A DNA stretch of 63,995 nucleotides, counting the filler, from Vannella sp. (Eukaryota): NCBI GenBank assembly GCA_023345925.1. It is 6 parts of 6 records of this genome, joined end to end, with 100 filler letters (N's around TTAATTAATTAA, not from the genome) between each part and the next. Parts side by side here need not be neighbours in the genome. Positions count along the whole stretch, not along the records: positions 39,048 to 54,280 come from JAJQQN010000321.1; 5 more parts are not named here. One strand, 5' to 3'. A model generated the notes under the pieces. It was not told the origin of the DNA, searched no databases, and worked only from the letters and a program-made list of their open reading frames with translations. The translations under genes were made by a program, and so were the position numbers. Within the stretch, counting starts at the first letter, position 1. Each line of letters opens with the position of its first letter. This document shows positions 16,225 to 63,995 of the stretch, one piece after another.

Positions 16225-19200
16225 TGTGGCTAGGAAGGGTAATGTGAATTCAGGAGAATCCAAGAGCAAAGGTCGAGTGAGTTTTGGTCGGAAATCGTTC
16301 CGCTTCAAAAGCTTGAACAGTCCAGTTCCCAACGGAACTGGAGCACCTACAATGATGCATTCACTGACTCCCTCGATGGTGTCTCCACGATTGTACACAG
16401 CAGCATCGAATAGATGATCGGTCGTCTTCTCAAAGGATGCTAACATCAAAACACTAAGGAAGGTTAGCACAGCAAAGGGGTCACCAAGTGAGACACTAAC
16501 CTGTCCTTCATCTTTTGTACACCGTGCCGCTGGATGCCGAGGCACATTCCTTTGAAAGTCATGATGTCAGCCAACAACATAAGATGTCGCGTGTCCACCG
16601 CTATTCCGTGGTTCCTCATTGTCATGCTGATTTCATTGATGATGGTAATGCGCGCTGCCTCAATTCCCAAAACCCGCTCCACCTCCACAACATCGTTAGA
16701 AACTGCTTCTCTTCCGACCACTCCATCCACATTCATCACACTTTGGAGATCATCGCCCTCCACAACCAGTCCATATGTTTCTGGTGACTCAGTCAAGATG
16801 GATATCACTGCACGACTGACTGAAGCGATGCCCTCAATGAGAACTTTGGGAAGGGCGCGCCGAAGAACTTCCAGATTGAAGAACAGGTTCTCCTTGAGGG
16901 CTGAGTGGTCTGGATAGACCACCAAGATGTCTTCGCCTTGAATACCAACATCCTTTGTCGCCACCTTCTTGTTGCTAATGATAGCCTCTCTGATGGATGT
17001 GATAGTTACTCCTTGCAACTGCAACTCGCGAATAGTCTTGAGCGAAACCTTGACAGTGATGTAGCAATTTGACTTGTCAAAGACCTTCGTAATGCTTTCA
17101 GAGACTTCACCTAGTGTAGTACGTTCTACTCGACCCTTGACGACACGGGCAAAGTCGCTGTTGTGCTTCAAAGTCAGTGGCGCGTTGACGATTGGGGTAC
17201 TAATGTTCTTAGAGGCACTGATAATCTCCCGGATACGCGGAACACCCTGAGTGATATTCATACTTGCGACACCAGCAAAGTGGAAGGTCTTCAGCGTCAT
17301 TTGAGTTCCAGGCTCTGAAATTGATTGTGCCCCAAGGGCTCCAACGGCAGTACCTGGTTCGATAATTGCACGATGGAATTTCAAGGCGCAGGTTTCGAGG
17401 AAGCGATTGAGGATGCCCTCTGAGATCATCCACTCACTCGCATTGATTTGGCGAGCAAGCCTTGGTGAAAGAGGGCGTTTGGGATCCCAGTTTTCGATGG
17501 CCCGCTCCTGTTTAATCAAGAACGTCACTTTGCCGCTCAAAAAATCAGCAAGGCTTTCTTTGAACGTCTCAGAGCATCGAGATAGCACCGGACCTTGGAT
17601 AAGAGGATCGATAAGATTACGGAGCTCAGCTGAGTTCAGAGGCTCTTCTGAACCAACCAACTCCATGTGAACGGAGATGGATTGATTAAGGACACGTTCA
17701 AACTCCATTGGGACGTTGTTCCCTTCCATATTACCAGGATCGAGGGAGTCTCCTCCATACTCAAATTGGATAACCGTTGAAGAGGCATTGCGAACAGTGT
17801 GGTCGTATTGAACGGAGAGATCCTCAAGAGCTTTCATCAGCTTCCGCGCCATGTATCCTGTCTCGGCTGTTTTCACTGCTGTGTCAACAAGACCTTCGCG
17901 ACCACCCATAGTGTGGAAGAAGAACTCTGTGGCTGTCATTCCAGAGTAAAAGCTGTTTTTGACAAACCCTCTAGCTTCTGGAGATTTGGCTGGGCGAAAG
18001 GTTAGAAATGATTATCAAACAGCGTCCATAGAGGTAGATTCATACTTACAGTGGAACTCAAAGTGGGGCAAAGTTCGATTGATGAATCCTTCTGTCACAC
18101 GGGAACCACTGACAGTTTGCTGCCCAACACAAGCAACCATCTGAGAAATATTCAAGGAGGAGCCCTTCGATCCAGAGTAGGCCATGATAAGTGGAGCATT
18201 GCTAAAGTGCAAGTACTCCGAGCAGAGTTTTCCAGATTCAGTACGGATGTCTGACAACTCTTTGTTCATCTTGTGTTCGAGAGTTGTCTCAACAGAACAA
18301 CCTGGAGATGCCTCCAGTCGCCCAAGCTTCCAATCTTCCAGGAGGCCCTCACATTTGGCATAGTTCTCCTTCATTACTGCCTCCTTGGCATTGTTGAGAG
18401 CCTCTGAAGCCTGAACATCATCAATTCCAATAGAAAAGCCCCGATCAGCTTGATTAAGAGTTAGATTTGGCGCATCAGAATTTTTTGACTTACTGAAAAA
18501 GCGTCCGCAAAGCTTCGCAAGGCAAGACATGCGATTCGCTGCTACCTCTGGGCCAAAGTCTCGAAGCATCAAGTGGAAGACGCTTCGCTTACTTCCACTT
18601 CCTAAGATGCTCTTGTCCATTGTACCGCACAGGAGTTCGCTGTTTCTTATAACCATGAATGCATCAGAAGGATCCATCTCTTCCAGCTTCGTAGCGTAAT
18701 TCTTTCCCGGACCACGATGATTGATGAGCACTTGAGAGGACTTGTTTGGGCGGAAGAGAACATTAAAGAGTTGCTTTCCCGTGTAAAGCACCACTGGCTT
18801 CAAGATAGCAGGCTCTGGCAAATCGATGTGCATAGTGGCATCAAACATGTACTGGCAATACTGCCAAAAGCGCTCGCGAGTAAGGAATGTGTCCTTTCGC
18901 GAGAGAATGAAAGACGCTGTGATGAAATCCTGGATAGCTGCAATCAGCGGCTCTCCTGATCGAGATGTGATCAAGTTTCGGGTGACACCCATTAGGTTCC
19001 AAGCCTCTGCACGAGCCTCTTCTGTTTGTGGAAGATGTAAATTCATCTCGTCGCCATCGAAATCAGCATTGTAAGGTGTACAAACACACTCGTTGAACCG
19101 GAAAGTGCGCCAAGGCATGATTTTGGCACGATGGGCCATGATGGACAGCTTATGCAAAGAGGGTTGACGATTAAAGAGAACAACATCGCCGTCCTCCATG

Positions 19201-20709
19201 TGTCTTTCGACGATATCTCCAATGCGAAGCGAAATGGCGATCTTCTCTCGGACAGCTTGAGGCAAATGCCCAATTTTTTTCTTCGTTCCATCGCCATACT
19301 CAACGTAGTTGGCTCCAGGATGAACCAGGGAGCCAGCAATCACTAATTTCCGGAGTTTCTCAATATTGTGTGAGAAGACACGCTCGGGATAAGTCATCAC
19401 CATCGCTACAAGAACGGGAACAGCAACTTGGTCAATACGCAAGTTAGGGTCTGGAGAAATGACAGTGCGAGAAGTAAAGTCAACTCGTTTTCCGGACAAG
19501 TTTCCGCGGAAGCGTCCATGCTTGCCCTTTAGGCGCTGGCAAAGAGAACGGATCTTCTTGATAACATCCTTGCTTGGGGGAGTAACGCCAGGACAGTCAC
19601 TGTTGAGATAGACAGCAGTGTTGAACTGTAAATACTCCCAATCCTATCGCAAATGCGTCAGCAATCACTGAGTGAACTAATCCATCCCATCTCACCCCCA
19701 TTATCTGTGAGATTGTCTTCCCCTCCTGCATGGCTTCACGGCAGATGTTGTTAACGCTGATGATGTCAGCAATCTTCACAGTAAGGTCATCCTCATTGCT
19801 TCCACCAACTCCAGGCATCATCACAGACGGGCGAATGCACAAAGGAGGCACCAAGTGATTCGTCATTATGAATCGTTCTGGAAAAGGAGTGTCGAGCAAC
19901 TCTCGATCCTCCGCTGGAATGCGTTCAAAGAGACGAAGAACCTTTGCTGGATCGAGGTCTTCCATGGCCTTGCTGATGTGGGGCTCGATCTCAGAGTTAT
20001 TCTCTTTCGCGTTGTTGAATAAGAGCAGGTGTTCCTCAGTCAGCCCTGTCTTGAGCGGCTCGTGAACAAGCTTAAGCCCAGTGCCAACCTTGCGAACAGT
20101 CCCGTTCTTGCTTCCACAGTGAGGACAAGTGGAGGCCCTCTTGCACTTGACCCCGATCTCTTCCTTGATGATCACGTACTTCTCTTGATAAGAGTGACAT
20201 GCCCTGAGCTTCTTCAAGTAATTGGCGCGCTCTGCATCGTTCAGCAGAAGCTTAGAACAAGACTACACCACAGAACGAACGAAGGGTGAGGATACATCGA
20301 GATGTGATCGAGGGAGGAGGGCATAGCTCACCTTGCAGATGATCTGGAGGGTAAAGTGCGTCGTTTTGAAGAACCCAAAGTGGAAGATAGGCACGCAGAA
20401 GTCGATAAAACCAAAGTGTCCGACGCAAGTCACCGGATCTTCGTTACACGTCTGACAAACAGATTTCTTATGCCCTGCACCCATGCGAGAATCAAGAGGA
20501 CCATGCGGGTAGGGCATCTCGATGCTCCCTTGGTACATATCACGATGGGACACCTCCAAGTGCGATAACTGTCGCACCTCCGTCGAGCTGAAGGCACCAA
20601 ACTCCAACCTCCCTCTACCCACTCATGTTACACTCACTTCCTACATCTCATCAGCGTCTTACATCTTCTGGGGAAGGCCCTCATCGAAGACAAAGGTCTT
20701 CTGACTCAT
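16225..20709 (-). CDS. POLR3A: RNA polymerase III largest subunit RPC1, multi-exon (stop lost at contig end)
   Basis: [42 protein letters not shown] and SECIIVG are RPC1-type; no heptad CTD seen in the sequenced part. Confidence 0.95.
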
Positions 20710-43975: not shown

Positions 43976-46900
43976 ATGGGCAACACCTCCTCTAAGACTG
44001 CCACGACCAACCTCTCGTCCAAGGACTTGGCCCTCCTTCGTGAGAAAATCATCAAGGAGTATCCTTGGCTTCAAGACGTGGAGGAGAGTATGCTCATCAC
44101 GGACATGAGGCTTCCTGACTGTCCCATAGTCTTTGCGAACAACGACTTCCATGAGATGACTCAGTACTCTCATGAAGAAGTGATTGGCTTCAACTGTCGC
44201 TTTCTTCAAGGCAAACATACGAACCCGCGGACCGTGGACAAGATTCGCGAGGCTGTGAAGACTGGCAAAGAGATTGAGGTTGACATCCTCAACTACCGCA
44301 AGGATGGCACTCCTTTCTTGAACAACTTCCTCATGGTTCCTCTCCACGCCAAGAAGAACCGCCCAGCCCTGGTCACCCACTTCCTCGCCGTGCAAAAGGA
44401 CGTCACCTACCTCCTCGAAGACGACGATCCTTCTGGATGGCACTCAGCCCAGATCGCCTTGTGGTTGGAGCGTGCTGGATATGGCGAGTACGCCGGTCCT
44501 TTCATCGAACATGAAGTCTCCGGGGCGCAGTTCCTTGAAATGAACGCATCTCGCCTCAGAAAGATCGGTATTGTGGACCGCACCGTGCAAATTCGACTGG
44601 TCAGGCTTATCCAACAGCTGGCCTCACAAGGCCCCTCGTTTATCCCAACTCTTGGCCGCTCAAAGGTTGAATCTGGCCCTGACCCGAAGAGTGACAGCCT
44701 TTGGGACGAGCATTCCAACAAAGGAGACACTTTTCCACGCGCTATTGACACTCAATCCTCCAGTGACTTGGCCAGCGCCAACTCAAATGGAGTCTACATG
44801 GCTGTCAATCTTCACCAGCCCCGTCAAGCGGCCTATTGGCGCCGAAAAAAGCTTCTGGATGACGACTTTCAAGTCCTCGAAGGAGATGGCAAAGAAGTGG
44901 ACGCCATTCCACTTGACATCCTCCTCCGGTTTGTCCTCTTTCATGTGGAGAGACAAGAAGAGATTGGAACACCCCAAGAGATGCAAATCAGCTGCCACTC
45001 TCTTCTGTACCACGTCAAACGAGCCATCCGTGGCATCCTCCTCTTGGAAAGCTCCATCTTCCTTCTCATGAACGTTGACGGCACGTGGCAGCGAATCACC
45101 AGCCAGCAGAACTTCAGGAAGTATTTGGCCCAAGGTAAGAACGCTCCCTACCGAAACCATTCCTAACCCAGCTTTAGTCACTTCCAGTACGAAGGAAGTG
45201 GACGTGCGCGTGTGTGAGCAACAAATCGCTTTGGAAATGCCTTTAGAAGGTGGAAATAATGCGGAGGGATTCTCGGAGCATGCTGTGGATGAGCTCAGCG
45301 AGATGAACGTTGCGTTCTCCTTTGTCATCCCGCGAGACACTTTCAGCAGCCGTGCCTTGTTGTTTGACTCTGTGATTGGCCGCGGTACTCCCAACAGTTC
45401 TCTGCACTCTACCCCTGATTTGTGGAGAGATCTGGACACTCTCAAAGACCAAAAGGGGCTTTGCTTTGTCATCCCCTGCACCGCTTCAGGCGTTCTGATT
45501 GAAGGCGCCGAATTTGCGTTCCGTGAGAAGTAAGAGTCCTCCTTTCCAAGCGCTATTGTTCTTATCAATCCAATCTTTGCAGATGCGTTGATATCTTGAG
45601 AGAGAGCGCAGAAAACCACTTTGGCGAGATCCCATTGGGCACTGCCATCCTTGCCCAAGTGAACTTAAGCTTCGTCGTTTTACTGGTAATGTCCCACAAC
45701 GATCTTCTCAAGGCGAAAGGAAGTGATGACACTTACTATCACTCCTTCCGGTCTGTTCTTGCCGCTGTCTCCCATCACAATCGCAGAATGGAAGAGAATC
45801 AGCCCAGCGAGATCCCTTCCATCTTTCCCGAGCCAGAGCAAGCCGCAATCATCAACCGCATCCTCTTCCCTGTGTACTTCCCCAATCCAGTGTCTGGCAG
45901 TAGCAAGAGCAAAGCTCCCGAAGCTCTCAAGTTTGGTCACCAAGTCTCCGTTGCCATCTCCTCGTTCATGCACTGGCTCTCAGCTTCCAAGAAAGACAAC
46001 GCACTCGAAACGCATCGCGCGTATCTTTCCACAGCTTTGCGAGACCGACAGCTCCGTCGAGGCATTGCTGCTTATGCTGGAAAGAAGGAAGAGAAGTTCG
46101 CAAACTATCTGGCATCAGGAGACCTGGCCAATCGTGGATTGATGGACCGACAGGAGATCGGCTGGCTTGTGGACGCTTGCGCCTTTGAAGGCGACAAGAC
46201 CTCCCCTTTCACTCACAATCGGCGCCTTCAACGTTTGGGACATGTGGCTTTGGCAGCTTTGCTCTCGAACAAACACTTTCAGACAGGAGAGGTGTTCCAA
46301 GTCCAACTGCGCAATGCCATTGTGAAGAACGCTCACTGCCTGGGTTGGCTGGTGAAAGCAGCATCTGGAGGCGGAGTGTCTTTCTGCCCAGTCGTGTCTT
46401 TGAATGACTTTGGCAAGCTGACTCGCTTTGCGCGAGGCGGCACTTGCACTCTTTACCGTGCCAAATGGAATGAAGAGGTGATTGCCGTGAAACTCTTCAA
46501 CGAGGAAGAGAGATCCACTGACATTCGACATGAAGTGGCTCTGTTGAGCCTCTTGCGCCATCCCAACGTCCTTCCAGTGTATGCGTATGGCACCTCTTTG
46601 TATGAGAACAGCATGCGGATGTTCTGTGTCAGTCCTTATGCAGAGAGAGGGTCGCTTTACAGCGTTCTTCGAGACAAATCGGGCCAGTTTGACCACGAGA
46701 AGAGAATCCACGTTCTCCAACAAGCTGCCGTGGGAGTGGAGCATCTCCATTCCCTGGGCTTAATCCACAGAGACCTCAAGTCGCTGAACATCCTCATCCG
46801 AGAAGACTGGGCGGTTTGGGTCGCTGATATTGGGGCCACACGGATTGAGGCGGACTACATGACTGTCAATGTGGGGACGCCCTTTTGGATGGCCCCTGAG

Positions 46901-47185
46901 ACGTTCACAACGCAAGAGTACTCCCAGAAAGCGGACGTTTACAGTTTCGGGATGATTCTGTTCGAGATGATTACTGGGAAGCAGCCTTTCGAGAAGATCT
47001 CCGCGTACGAAGTTCCAATTCTCATCTGCAAAGGACAGCGTCCTCCACTTCCTGCCAATCTGGCCAAGCCCTGGCACAAACTGATCACGAGCATGTGGTC
47101 CGAGAAGCCCTCCAAACGCCCCACCATGCACAAAGTTGGTCTTTCTCTGACCGCCCTTCAAAACGTCCCTTTCTTGGGCCCTTAA
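43976..47185 (+). CDS. LOV-SAM-(ubiquitin/PB1-like)-macro-like-TKL protein kinase (3 exons, ~1037 aa)
   Basis: Exons 43976-45134, 45178-45529 and 45583-47185 join in frame. MGNTSS myristoylation-type start; GFNCRFLQG LOV motif; SAM; kinase AVK, HRDLKSLN, DIG, GTPFWMAPE, DVYSFG. Confidence 0.9.
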
Positions 47186-52232: not shown

Positions 52233-53524
<1,292 letters not shown>

Positions 53525-61524: not shown

Positions 61525-63735
61525 TTATCCGCGGTCGGTGACACCCGGAACTGGTTCCCTCTTAGTTAGTCTCTCGCCTGTGCATAATGGACCTGTATAG
61601 ATCAGCCGAGCAGTTTCCTCAGAGTCCATTGAGTACGCAGATTTGTGCGGAGTGCACACGGTCCTGACGACCTGGGTGTATTTGTGATCAGAGCTGTGGT
61701 CTTGGAAATGTCTTTCACAGTTGTCCTGCCACTTCATCAATGATTCTGAGCTGTTAGCAGGTAAAACTAAAGTGAACTCTGACTCTGACACACCCTGGAG
61801 AAGAGCAGGGATGACTTCATTCAGTTCGAGGAGTCTCTTCATAGCCATCATCTTGCCAGTGGGCCGTTTGTAAGAACGGCAGGGGGCACCAAATTGCCGC
61901 ACTAATGGTAAGTCATTCTGTACTTCGACCTCGGTTTCAGCAATACAGTCCTTCTCCAAAGAAGTACAAGCGCAGTAGTAGATGGCCGAGAAGGGCAGCT
62001 CAGTTTGACCCTCAATGAATCCGACGAACTCACTCAGAGCCTCTTCATCCAAGAGATCAAGTCCCATCACAGACACATTCCGCATCCAATCAGCATGATC
62101 AGTCTCTTGATACAACGCATTGGCCAGGGACTTTGGAGATCTCGTGGTAATGGAAACCGAGCTTCCGAGTCTCAACATTAAAAGGGCTAAGCTCAACCCT
62201 GGTCCATTCTGTCCGCCAATCACCAGCGCGGTGGGGTCACCTGTTGTAAGAGGTCTGGACGAGAGGCACATGCTACAGAAGGCTCTAAAGATCTCCCCAG
62301 TATGGGAGATCGTACTTCTATAACACAAAGAACAGAGGTTACTGTGCCTTACTCCGAAACTAAATCTGCGGAAAGTGATCTGCCGCATCCACGAGTAGTT
62401 TCCTGCCAAGAAGGGATTGGGAGATTCGGCTTTCCGTCCACTGCCCTTTCCAACAATGTCTGTCAAGGTCATCTTCGGGCCATAGGGAACGGAAGGTCCG
62501 TAAAAGCGATTGTTCCTTCCTTTTCTTCCCGGTGCTTCTTCTTTCAGGTCCCCGACTCTGAGACTCCACATCAGAAAACGAGTGGCTTCGGACTTGTCTG
62601 ACATTCGAGCCAGGACTGTGAACCCTAGGCGTAAGTACTTCTTGATGCGTTCCAGTGTGTCGTGCCTTGCCACTGGGATAGTCCAAGTATTCAGTGACCT
62701 CAAAGCTCTCTCTGAACACAGAACCTGAGTTCCATCAAAGATAATGGCGCAGATCGACAAGTCGTGAAGTGCTAAGAGCTCTTCTTTCTCTTTCACAACG
62801 AGGCACACGAATTGAATGTTCCTGATGGGCGCTCCAACTGCGATAACGATCGAATAGGGAGTCTGGATGGCCTCCCATTTGAGTCCTTTCCCTGCAAGGA
62901 TACTTAGAAGTTGGTTCAGAGCTTCTTGCTGTTTTTGGATGGCTTCTTCAAAGGTAGCGGCCACAACAAACAGATCCACGTCAGAAGAGGGACAGAGATT
63001 GTCGAAGAACTTCTTCGTTTGACGTTGGATATCCTCTCTGGTCCAATGCACAACTGGTAGATAATCCAGAATCATCTCTTGCAACTCCAGTGGGAGACCT
63101 TTCGCGGGATTGCTGAGGACTTTCTCCACAGCCTCTCGGCTCTTGACAGCTTGTCTCACGCGATTCATCTTCTCTGCAGGATCCCTCGCTGCCAAACAAT
63201 GTAGAACTGCTGAGCCACCAAGAACGATGTTTGAAGAAAGCAAAGGAGTGATGTCGAGACCCACAAAAGTCTCCAAGTTCTCCAGAAAGTGTTCTTTGGA
63301 CTGGACTATCGAAGACCCTCTCGTGAAAACTATTGCACGACGAGTGACTGGAGCTTCATAGAATTCCTTCTCCAAAGGGCTCAATTCACGACGATGAAAG
63401 AGAGGATTCGCAAAGCCATCCTCTTGAAACGCACTGTGAACGACCCAATCAGGTGCCGGAAAGGGAGCAGGGATGTCGGAGTTTGGCATAAGTGGGCGGG
63501 TCAGATAGTAGCGAAGATTACGAGCGTCGAGATCTTGCTGAGCAACTTCCAAAAGGCAAGGCAGGAATGCACTTGCTTGAGGGTGTCGCAAAGGATCTAG
63601 TCCAGAAGGAGCCTTCAGCAACTCCATGGGCAAAGTGGGCCATTCCTCCCTATCCTGCAGGATCCTCTCAAGCACCTTCTCGACCTTGTCCCAATCGACC
63701 AACTCTCCAGACATGTACTTTGACATCTGAGACAT
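61525..63735 (-). CDS. Intronless 736-aa protein: pol-beta-like nucleotidyltransferase domain + CxxC/CxxC + degenerate SDR Rossmann domain
   Basis: IVLGGSAVLHCL, SDVDLFV, HDLSICAIIFDG..RA, RIKKYLRLGF; CSLC..CSMC; ALVIGG..G..LALLMLRLGSSVSITTRSP..DW..VMGLDL. Confidence 0.75.
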   Translation of the reverse strand: MSQMSKYMSGELVDWDKVEKVLERILQDREEWPTLPMELLKAPSGLDPLRHPQASAFLPCLLEVAQQDLDARNLRYYLTRPLMPNSDIPAPFPAPDWVVHSAFQEDGFANPLFHRRELSPLEKEFYEAPVTRRAIVFTRGSSIVQSKEHFLENLETFVGLDITPLLSSNIVLGGSAVLHCLAARDPAEKMNRVRQAVKSREAVEKVLSNPAKGLPLELQEMILDYLPVVHWTREDIQRQTKKFFDNLCPSSDVDLFVVAATFEEAIQKQQEALNQLLSILAGKGLKWEAIQTPYSIVIAVGAPIRNIQFVCLVVKEKEELLALHDLSICAIIFDGTQVLCSERALRSLNTWTIPVARHDTLERIKKYLRLGFTVLARMSDKSEATRFLMWSLRVGDLKEEAPGRKGRNNRFYGPSVPYGPKMTLTDIVGKGSGRKAESPNPFLAGNYSWMRQITFRRFSFGVRHSNLCSLCYRSTISHTGEIFRAFCSMCLSSRPLTTGDPTALVIGGQNGPGLSLALLMLRLGSSVSITTRSPKSLANALYQETDHADWMRNVSVMGLDLLDEEALSEFVGFIEGQTELPFSAIYYCACTSLEKDCIAETEVEVQNDLPLVRQFGAPCRSYKRPTGKMMAMKRLLELNEVIPALLQGVSESEFTLVLPANSSESLMKWQDNCERHFQDHSSDHKYTQVVRTVCTPHKSAYSMDSEETARLIYTGPLCTGERLTKREPVPGVTDRG

Positions 63736-63995
63736 TGCAAATGAAAACTGATTTCCTTTCCTCTTCCACGAAGAAGGACTGGTTTTACCAAAAAAAAGTA
63801 GAGGAATTGAGGATGATTATTGGATGAGAGACGAGTGATCATTGCGATAATTATTTGATTATTCCAACACCAGCGAGACTATGCGTCAGAAGAGAAAATC
63901 CACGAGCGAAGGGGAAGAGGGTTCCAAAACGCGTGTTTGCATAGAGTGCCCTGATGACCTCCATCTCTTCAGGATAAGCCTTTGGCCTGATTTCA

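Follow-up and report, generated by a model that had tools for sequence, protein, structure and literature searches.

The analysed window, a stretch of 63,995 nucleotides (nt) of Vannella sp. (GenBank assembly GCA_023345925.1; filler between its six parts included), contains in the part taken from JAJQQN010000321.1 a gene at positions 43976-47185 of the plus strand. It encodes a single predicted protein with the domain order Met-Gly N-terminus, LOV, SAM, degenerate PB1-like beta-grasp, degenerate macro-like domain, helical region and TKL-group kinase. On balance, this LOV-SAM-(PB1-like)-(macro-like)-TKL protein would seem to act as a membrane-anchored blue-light receptor kinase. Judged by sequence, its LOV-SAM-PB1 head is an inherited cassette common to RasGAP-, RasGEF- and PAS-tailed proteins, and the modular family bearing it spans three amoebozoan phyla, which is a larger result than the single gene. 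A broader proposal, which is evenly poised between right and wrong, is that the family comprises ancient amoebozoan membrane-anchored blue-light receptors, in which one LOV-SAM-PB1 cassette was set on RasGAP, RasGEF and Raf-like/TKL outputs and light was wired into the Ras-kinase circuits steering amoeboid movement; the window gene would be the kinase branch and a second eukaryotic LOV receptor kinase, separate from phototropin.

Gene model and its support from relatives

The earlier note on this DNA had joined three open reading frames (ORFs) into one spliced gene. Removal of two GT-AG introns gives an ORF of 1037 amino acids (aa), 3114 nt with the stop codon, and comparison with relatives, on which the junctions rest, confirms the whole model:

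43976-45134, plus strand: exon 1 (aa 1-386 plus 1 nt), with the Met-Gly start, N-cap helix, LOV, SAM, linker and most of the PB1-like domain
45135-45177, plus strand: intron 1, 43 nt, GTAAG..TTTAG, phase 1
45178-45529, plus strand: exon 2, with likely the last PB1-like strand and the N-terminal half of the macro-like domain
45530-45582, plus strand: intron 2, 53 nt, GTAAG..TGCAG, phase 2
45583-47185, plus strand: exon 3, with the remainder of the macro-like domain, the helical region, the TKL kinase and the stop codon

The MMETSP transcript protein P0258 (1041 aa; a cluster member, not the representative) can be aligned to the spliced product as a single block that continues across both junctions, with 444 of 1059 columns identical (42%). 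Identity is 75% in LOV, 54% in SAM and 17% in the beta-grasp, and 36%, 39% and 46% in the macro-like domain, the pre-kinase region (aa 601-772) and the kinase, respectively. The genomic ORFs P0109 (ENA; P0258 cluster) and P0392 (another cluster) diverge from the alignment, reading Gly-Lys, at the residue that corresponds to the start of intron 1, whereas the transcript stays collinear there; the ENA ORF P0259 (P0258 cluster), which matches exon 2 with 36% identity over 73 aa (E-value 1e-16), stops at the Lys that corresponds to the start of intron 2, and P0258 goes on with K-C. Since these ORFs break at equivalent residues, both intron positions appear conserved. P0258 and P0392 also start with MGN at the same place as the window protein, and P0270/P0390 represents a further orthologue of the kinase half. 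The transcriptome-derived P0221 of Stygamoeba regulata contains LOV-SAM followed by matches to the pre-kinase region (E 1e-10) and the kinase, with no recognisable PB1. A search with residues 1-330 of exon 3 among representative proteins of 934-2665 aa gave no match.

Intron 1 carries a CTAAC branch-type motif, and its unspliced reading meets an in-frame TAA. An alternative in-frame acceptor at 45171 would add two residues; the acceptor at 45177 is preferred because it lies 11 nt from the A of the CTAAC motif, as read from the sequence. The short GTAAG..YAG pattern occurs 85 times in the window versus 56 +/- 10 times in shuffles, and a count of 85 was reached by one of 100 shuffles.

The fusion of LOV-SAM to the kinase is well supported by these sequence comparisons. 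It is highly improbable that two genes encode the head and the kinase separately, or that read-through of intron 1 yields a short LOV-SAM-PB1 protein as the main product. The junction support from relatives, rather than from reads of the same organism, and the small size of many family members (320-520 aa) would suit such a reading, but the collinear transcript, the recurrence of both break points, the Stygamoeba transcript linking LOV-SAM to the same C-terminal half and a macro-like match that spans intron 2 all argue against it.

A LOV-SAM head shared by amoebozoan proteins

The head, including its N-terminal motif, comprises the following features:

43976-43993, plus strand: predicted N-myristoylation motif MGNTSS, of the pattern Met-Gly-x-x-x-Ser/Thr
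44018-44077, plus strand: N-cap (A'alpha-like) helices, aa 15-34, family motif [EQ]-Y-P; AlphaFold2 helices 15-28 and 30-34
44084-44407, plus strand: LOV domain, aa 37-144, from Pfam and Foldseek
44432-44629, plus strand: SAM domain, aa 153-218; Pfam SAM_1 at aa 153-215, E 1.3e-9
44804-44845, plus strand: post-SAM motif V-x-L-x-x-P-x5-W, aa 277-290, a candidate latch
44921-45212, plus strand: degenerate PB1-like beta-grasp, aa ~316-398, crossing intron 1

The LOV domain was recognised by Pfam PAS_9 (aa 45-144, E 1.4e-17), and Foldseek confirmed the fold by similarity to solved LOV domains (root-mean-square deviation (rmsd) of about 1.0-1.4 Å in the top five matches); none of the listed Foldseek matches covered LOV and SAM together. 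The functional residues named in the earlier note are intact: GFNCRFLQG starts at 44186 and places Cys74 at 44195-44197, NYRKDG at 44291 contains Asn106, FLNNF at 44315 contains Asn116 (44321), and AVQKD at 44387 contains Gln140 (44393). An alignment of 54 Cys-bearing members (A4), which leaves out four Cys-less members and P0233, P0240, P0241 and P0242, shows Gly71, Asn73, Cys74, Arg75, Gln78, Asn106, Phe114, Asn116 and Gln140 to be invariant in all rows, and all kinase-type heads retain Cys74, Asn106, Asn116 and Gln140. With this set of residues, the LOV domain very probably photocycles. The N-terminal Met-Gly, in keeping with the myristoylation proposed earlier, was found in 34 of 39 head-type representatives versus 9 of 153 other LOV proteins, and it is accompanied by Ser/Thr at position 6 in 27 of the 39; in the N-cap, Tyr29 is kept in 50 and Pro30 in all of the 52 filled rows. 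A scan of metagenome loci (348 pattern matches, one locus) yielded a Tara marine contig with a family head (L002:1058-1769) and two apparent introns, one after a short Met-Gly exon (ATG-GGA start) and the other inside NYRK-DG.

A profile of three heads (A1) was searched against 1.84 billion representatives, and the best 150 clusters were taken. Fifty of them, including the window's own ORF P0105, have a Cys-bearing LOV domain followed directly by SAM. Pfam annotation of 47 of the 50 gave RasGAP in six, RasGEF in two, kinase in one (plus P0109 through its cluster-mate P0258), PB1 in eight and, as weak matches, a second PAS downstream of the head in 12 and a beta-propeller in two. P0005 (RasGAP) and P0024/P0101 (RasGEF) were found by searches other than that with the A1 profile. 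LOV-SAM with a C-terminal RasGAP or RasGEF domain occurs in P0005, P0106, P0179, P0195, P0197, P0228 and P0238 and in P0024/P0101, P0110, P0111 and P0242; these proteins are candidates for natural Ras regulators that light would gate in opposite directions.

Six of 20 looked-up clusters were named, from Stygamoeba and Clydonella (Discosea), Arcella and Pyxidicula (Tubulinea) and Protostelium and Planoprotostelium (Evosea); every named database relative belongs to Amoebozoa, and from this range the host, too, is likely amoebozoan, in line with the amoeboid protist expected by the earlier note. The family may not explain light responses of Dictyostelium, because no dictyostelid was present among the 20 looked-up clusters. 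Madagascaria is a genus of red algae. In the LOV table of Coesel et al. (2021; PMC8017926), one SAM domain annotated at a comparable position belongs to its transcriptome, which may represent contamination or an exception.

The LOV phylogeny called for by the earlier note was approached with a quick tree of 98 LOV domains and 108 columns, of weak resolution. The 52 family rows fell on one side of a branch (Shimodaira-Hasegawa-like approximate likelihood ratio (SH-aLRT) support 88, under the 95 mark), and the 20 phototropin rows were set apart (91); the bacterial outgroup did not form one side of any branch. In the free tree, the LOV domain of the Stygamoeba kinase lay outside the other three kinase-type LOV domains, but the grouping of all four was not rejected (approximately unbiased test, p-AU 0.63).

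Proposed coupling of the head to the kinase

The C-terminal part of the protein contains three further regions:

45381-45871, plus strand: degenerate macro-like domain, aa ~455-600, crossing intron 2
45914-46387, plus strand: pre-kinase conserved region, aa ~615-772, predicted to be helical at low confidence
46409-47161, plus strand: TKL-group kinase, aa ~780-1030; Pfam PK_Tyr_Ser-Thr E 1e-47, above Pkinase

The assignment of the kinase to the TKL group, as in the earlier note, is made from the nearest PDB matches and the Pfam scores; exon 3 is most similar to TAK1 (E 2e-39) and CTR1 (E 9e-37), followed by EGFR, the STE20-family STK24, BRAF, MLT/ZAK and TNNI3K. The kinase contains Lys807 of the VAxK motif, the alpha-C Glu821, HRDLKSLN (Asp901 at 46772), DIG (46826), APE and DVYSFG, and the catalytic residues are kept in all four kinase-type sequences (window, P0258, P0390 and P0221).

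The SAM domain begins close behind the LOV core, Trp155 being 15 residues past Gln140, and this spacing is 15-17 residues in 49 of 49 measurable A4 rows; with so short a spacing, there is little space for a J-alpha helix, and the AlphaFold2 model has a six-residue helix there. AlphaFold2 modelling of exon 1 with the A4 alignment gave a predicted local distance difference test (pLDDT) score of 81 and a predicted template modelling (pTM) score of 0.70, despite 65 low-confidence residues. In it, a long N-cap helix precedes LOV and SAM; residues 226-272 are disordered, those at ~277-290 form an ordered motif, and a unit of beta-grasp type follows. The model suggests that LOV, SAM, the motif and PB1 form a packed unit. 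Of the 40 filled rows, 28 keep Pro282 and 31 keep Trp288 of the post-SAM motif. Ten of 50 rows of a VIA-align structure comparison, mostly LOV2-J-alpha or LOV-effector structures, reach model residues 282-291; the J-alpha/effector-helix LOV alignments 4hhd, 7tbn, 7tal, 5hzi, 5hzh, 3p7n, 4r3a, 4hj6 and 9hkf end at residues 283-291. These range ends, which are all that VIA gives, hint that the P-x5-W motif may dock at the J-alpha site.

The following segment had been described as a beta-grasp ubiquitin-like (Ubl) domain. The beta-grasp is borne out by the AlphaFold2 topology (strand-strand-helix-strand-strand-helix, pLDDT 73-94), and the Ubl label gives way to a degenerate PB1-like one: the segment occupies the position of the Pfam PB1 domain in sister proteins and matches the family PB1 in hhalign (79%). 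Scored on its own against the PB1 profile, the window sequence reaches -0.6 bits, whereas the best shuffles reach 6.5; at the position of the PB1 Lys, which 36 of 44 filled rows have, it carries Val320. No PB1 or Ubl structure is present among the 50 VIA rows, which are all taken by LOV and SAM.

The macro-like domain of the earlier note found moderate support. The middle region of three kinase-type proteins, compared by hhalign with 110 bacterial macro-type proteins from 120 loci (two were scanned, and both contained Pfam Macro), gave a probability of 93.5% and E 2.3e-7 over aa 479-584, across intron 2; the macro hidden Markov model scored 15.4 bits with P0258 and 9.1 with the window protein, versus at most 0.2 for 200 shuffles. 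Direct Pfam Macro matches were absent from the window exons and P0258. The glycine-rich ADP-ribose-binding loops are degenerate, PANSFGxMDGG aligning to PCTASGVL and the match ending before the PGLGTG loop, and the score is not raised by splicing (9.1 bits for the spliced protein, 10.1 for exon 3 by itself). For these two reasons, the macro-like fold is probably non-binding, and ADP-ribose binding is doubtful.

The pre-kinase region, found also in Stygamoeba P0221, had no Pfam match in the window exons or P0258, and exon 2 had none at E<=1. Folding exon 3 from its single sequence gave no usable model (pLDDT 35), and comparison of the start of exon 3 with phage proteins and PDB gave chance-level matches. 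One atlas search produced only TIR-like matches, all under 0.8, and another produced none; a TIR reading was rejected.

In the proposed mechanism, myristoylation of Gly2 would keep the protein at the membrane, and blue light would generate the Cys74-flavin mononucleotide (FMN) adduct and a flip of Gln140, as in other LOV domains, in which blue light drives formation of the Cys-flavin adduct and the Gln passes the resulting change on to the face of the beta-sheet. Since no J-alpha helix follows the LOV core directly, the signal would reach the tightly spaced SAM domain and the P-x5-W motif, the latter looping back onto the LOV sheet as a dark-state latch. Release of the latch would free the PB1-like/macro-like/kinase part, and the kinase would dimerise or reach its substrates and phosphorylate Ser/Thr targets; the same head would gate the RasGAP and RasGEF tails of sister proteins. 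Since one head carries GAP, GEF and kinase tails, generic release or relocation is more economical than a kinase-specific contact. Light probably alters the kinase output, through activity or access; that the latch serves as the signalling route is put forward tentatively and may well be wrong.

The main rival, an idea of the earlier note that is unlikely but deserves attention, is that light gates oligomerisation or clustering of SAM at the membrane and that the kinase is activated by proximity. The fixed position of SAM past the signalling Gln speaks for it, as do the closest folds of the domain in VIA-align, the SAMs of DGK-delta and CNK2/HYP (Z 11.9, rmsd 1.2 Å) and of SARM1; the DGK-delta, CNK/HYP and SARM1 SAMs polymerise or heterodimerise, and Raf-like kinases are activated through dimerisation. 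A mild argument against SAM clustering is that the helix-5 surface (aa 201-207), where a polymer interface would be expected to be conserved, is poorly conserved while the core is kept.

Several points weigh against the light-gated kinase and its latch. The kinase starts ~640 residues after LOV, and so the coupling of the two is not obvious; the VIA ranges are first and last residues only, and the latch may rest on few aligned positions; the post-SAM motif is filled in just 40 of 54 rows and is not evident in Stygamoeba P0221. The Gly-rich loop of the kinase is atypical (A-R-G-G-T-C, with the first and third Gly absent), and DFG reads DIG. Four long members (P0158, P0189, P0202 and P0210; 1800-2200 aa) contain LOV-SAM units twice without the photoactive Cys, a second SAM being detected in three of them; since they have lost the Cys, the head can persist without photochemistry, and they probably constitute a light-blind branch of the family. 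In addition, expression was weak and showed no regulation by light for those transcripts of Physarum roseum that have domains in common with the five photoreceptor genes of P. polycephalum, which include LovA (PMC12308756; statements on this and the other cited papers refer to the parts of the text covered).

The Cys-less members, the macro-like domain lying between head and kinase and the ability of LOV domains to perceive other cues (PMC13737086) could also be read as signs that the flavin-binding head senses redox state, oxygen or temperature instead of light, or that it is structural, with other inputs to the kinase, e.g., through the macro-like domain. This is improbable, given the presence of Cys74, Asn106, Asn116 and Gln140 in 54 of 54 rows of an alignment that leaves out the Cys-less members, and the degenerate glycine loops, which make ADP-ribose a doubtful input.

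Relation to known photoreceptors and further observations

The earlier note regarded the architecture as independently assembled and undescribed. The first claim does not hold for the head, which is an inherited cassette already in print for Physarum polycephalum LovA (Phypoly-transcript_01902; RasGAP-PB1-PAS_9-SAM-PB1), proposed from sequence in 2015 as an unconventional blue-light receptor (PMC4758236). In the literature covered, the second holds for the kinase version and not for the head, and the kinase tail alone is the new element. By described domain order, both amoebozoan proteins have LOV (PAS_9, NCRFLQ) followed by SAM and a domain in the PB1 position; LovA has an N-terminal RasGAP-PB1 and no kinase, whereas the window protein begins with Met-Gly and the head, which are followed by the macro-like domain, the helical region and the TKL kinase, and no RasGAP match was found in the window exons or P0258.

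Phototropins likewise combine Cys-bearing LOV and a Ser/Thr-type kinase in one chain, and the LOV domain is 44-50% identical in most phototropin matches. Unlike phototropins, the window protein has a single LOV domain (one NCRFLQ in the window, one PAS_9 stretch) with SAM right after its core, and a kinase that is TKL rather than AGC, 20-26% identical to phototropin kinases in most matches. Identity as a phototropin was rejected on the single LOV domain, the TAK1/CTR1-like kinase and the separate LOV branch; the protein would work like a phototropin, from LOV to kinase, and by its head is a LovA-type family member. With the TKL kinases TAK1, CTR1, ZAK/MLT and RAF it shares HRDLKSLN and GTxxWMAPE, and it differs from them in its regulatory region, LOV-SAM-PB1-like-macro-like. 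None of these TKL-group kinases is known to carry a photosensor.

The supplement of Coesel et al. lists amoebozoan 'LOV-phototropin' entries in clade E.15 (PMC8017926). Entries of Sexangularia (one) and Stygamoeba (two) have the same head of Met-Gly, YP-cap, LOV and SAM type, and three Filamoeba entries have SAM annotations; in the covered parts, these heads are dataset rows under the phototropin label, without discussion in the text, and the Stygamoeba kinase accession CAMPEP_0177637278 had no match in the supplement parts searched. Full-text literature gave no description of a LOV-SAM-TKL protein or LOV-SAM family, with three sources that may bear on novelty outside its coverage: the Physarum supplement, part of the Coesel supplement and the LOV effector catalogue of Glantz et al. 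2016, which reportedly has SAM among its effectors. The available parts of PMC13737086, bioRxiv 2025.06.20.660589 and bioRxiv 2024.09.02.610796 contain no LOV-SAM-kinase.

Amoebae form or suppress pseudopodia in response to light; the photoreceptor of Dictyostelium has been described as unknown, and Ras signalling has been implicated in its phototaxis (PMC2781859, PMC12503944). The family likely provides non-photosynthetic cells with a direct path from light to signalling, and an intact LOV fused to RasGEF, RasGAP or TKL kinase provides named, clonable candidates for amoebozoan blue-light sensing, so that its modularity makes the question of the amoebal blue-light receptor directly testable. 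If the proposal is true, phototropin would be joined by a second way of building a LOV receptor kinase, and optogenetics would gain a supply of natural Ras regulators and kinases that are gated by light within a single chain.

The other genes of the window are typically eukaryotic and include those for an RNB-family nuclease, a Vps39-like protein, an RNA polymerase large subunit, sortilin and AMP deaminase; the RNA polymerase largest-subunit gene (16467-20262, minus strand) is probably that of Pol III. An open frame of 763 codons (61528-63816, minus strand) had no Pfam match at E<=1e-4. A second kinase ORF (52862-53524, minus strand) also has a Met-Gly start (MGACLS) and may encode a lipid-anchored kinase.

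Among the metagenome runs, X6 gave matches to conserved motifs only. Over 44036-44256 and 46963-47136, the biofilm run X1 contains a further kinase contig and no fewer than two further LOV contigs, of which one differs at 38 of 221 bases. The differences lie mostly at third codon positions (28 of the 33 listed for the related LOV contigs), which speaks for the receptor reading, and the contigs presumably come from paralogues or from related amoebae present in that sample. Over 44659-45130, four contigs of 151 bases from two freshwater metagenomes (X4 and X5) differ from the non-conserved linker at 0-1 positions, which shows that both samples contain, at low cover, this organism or one nearly identical to it.

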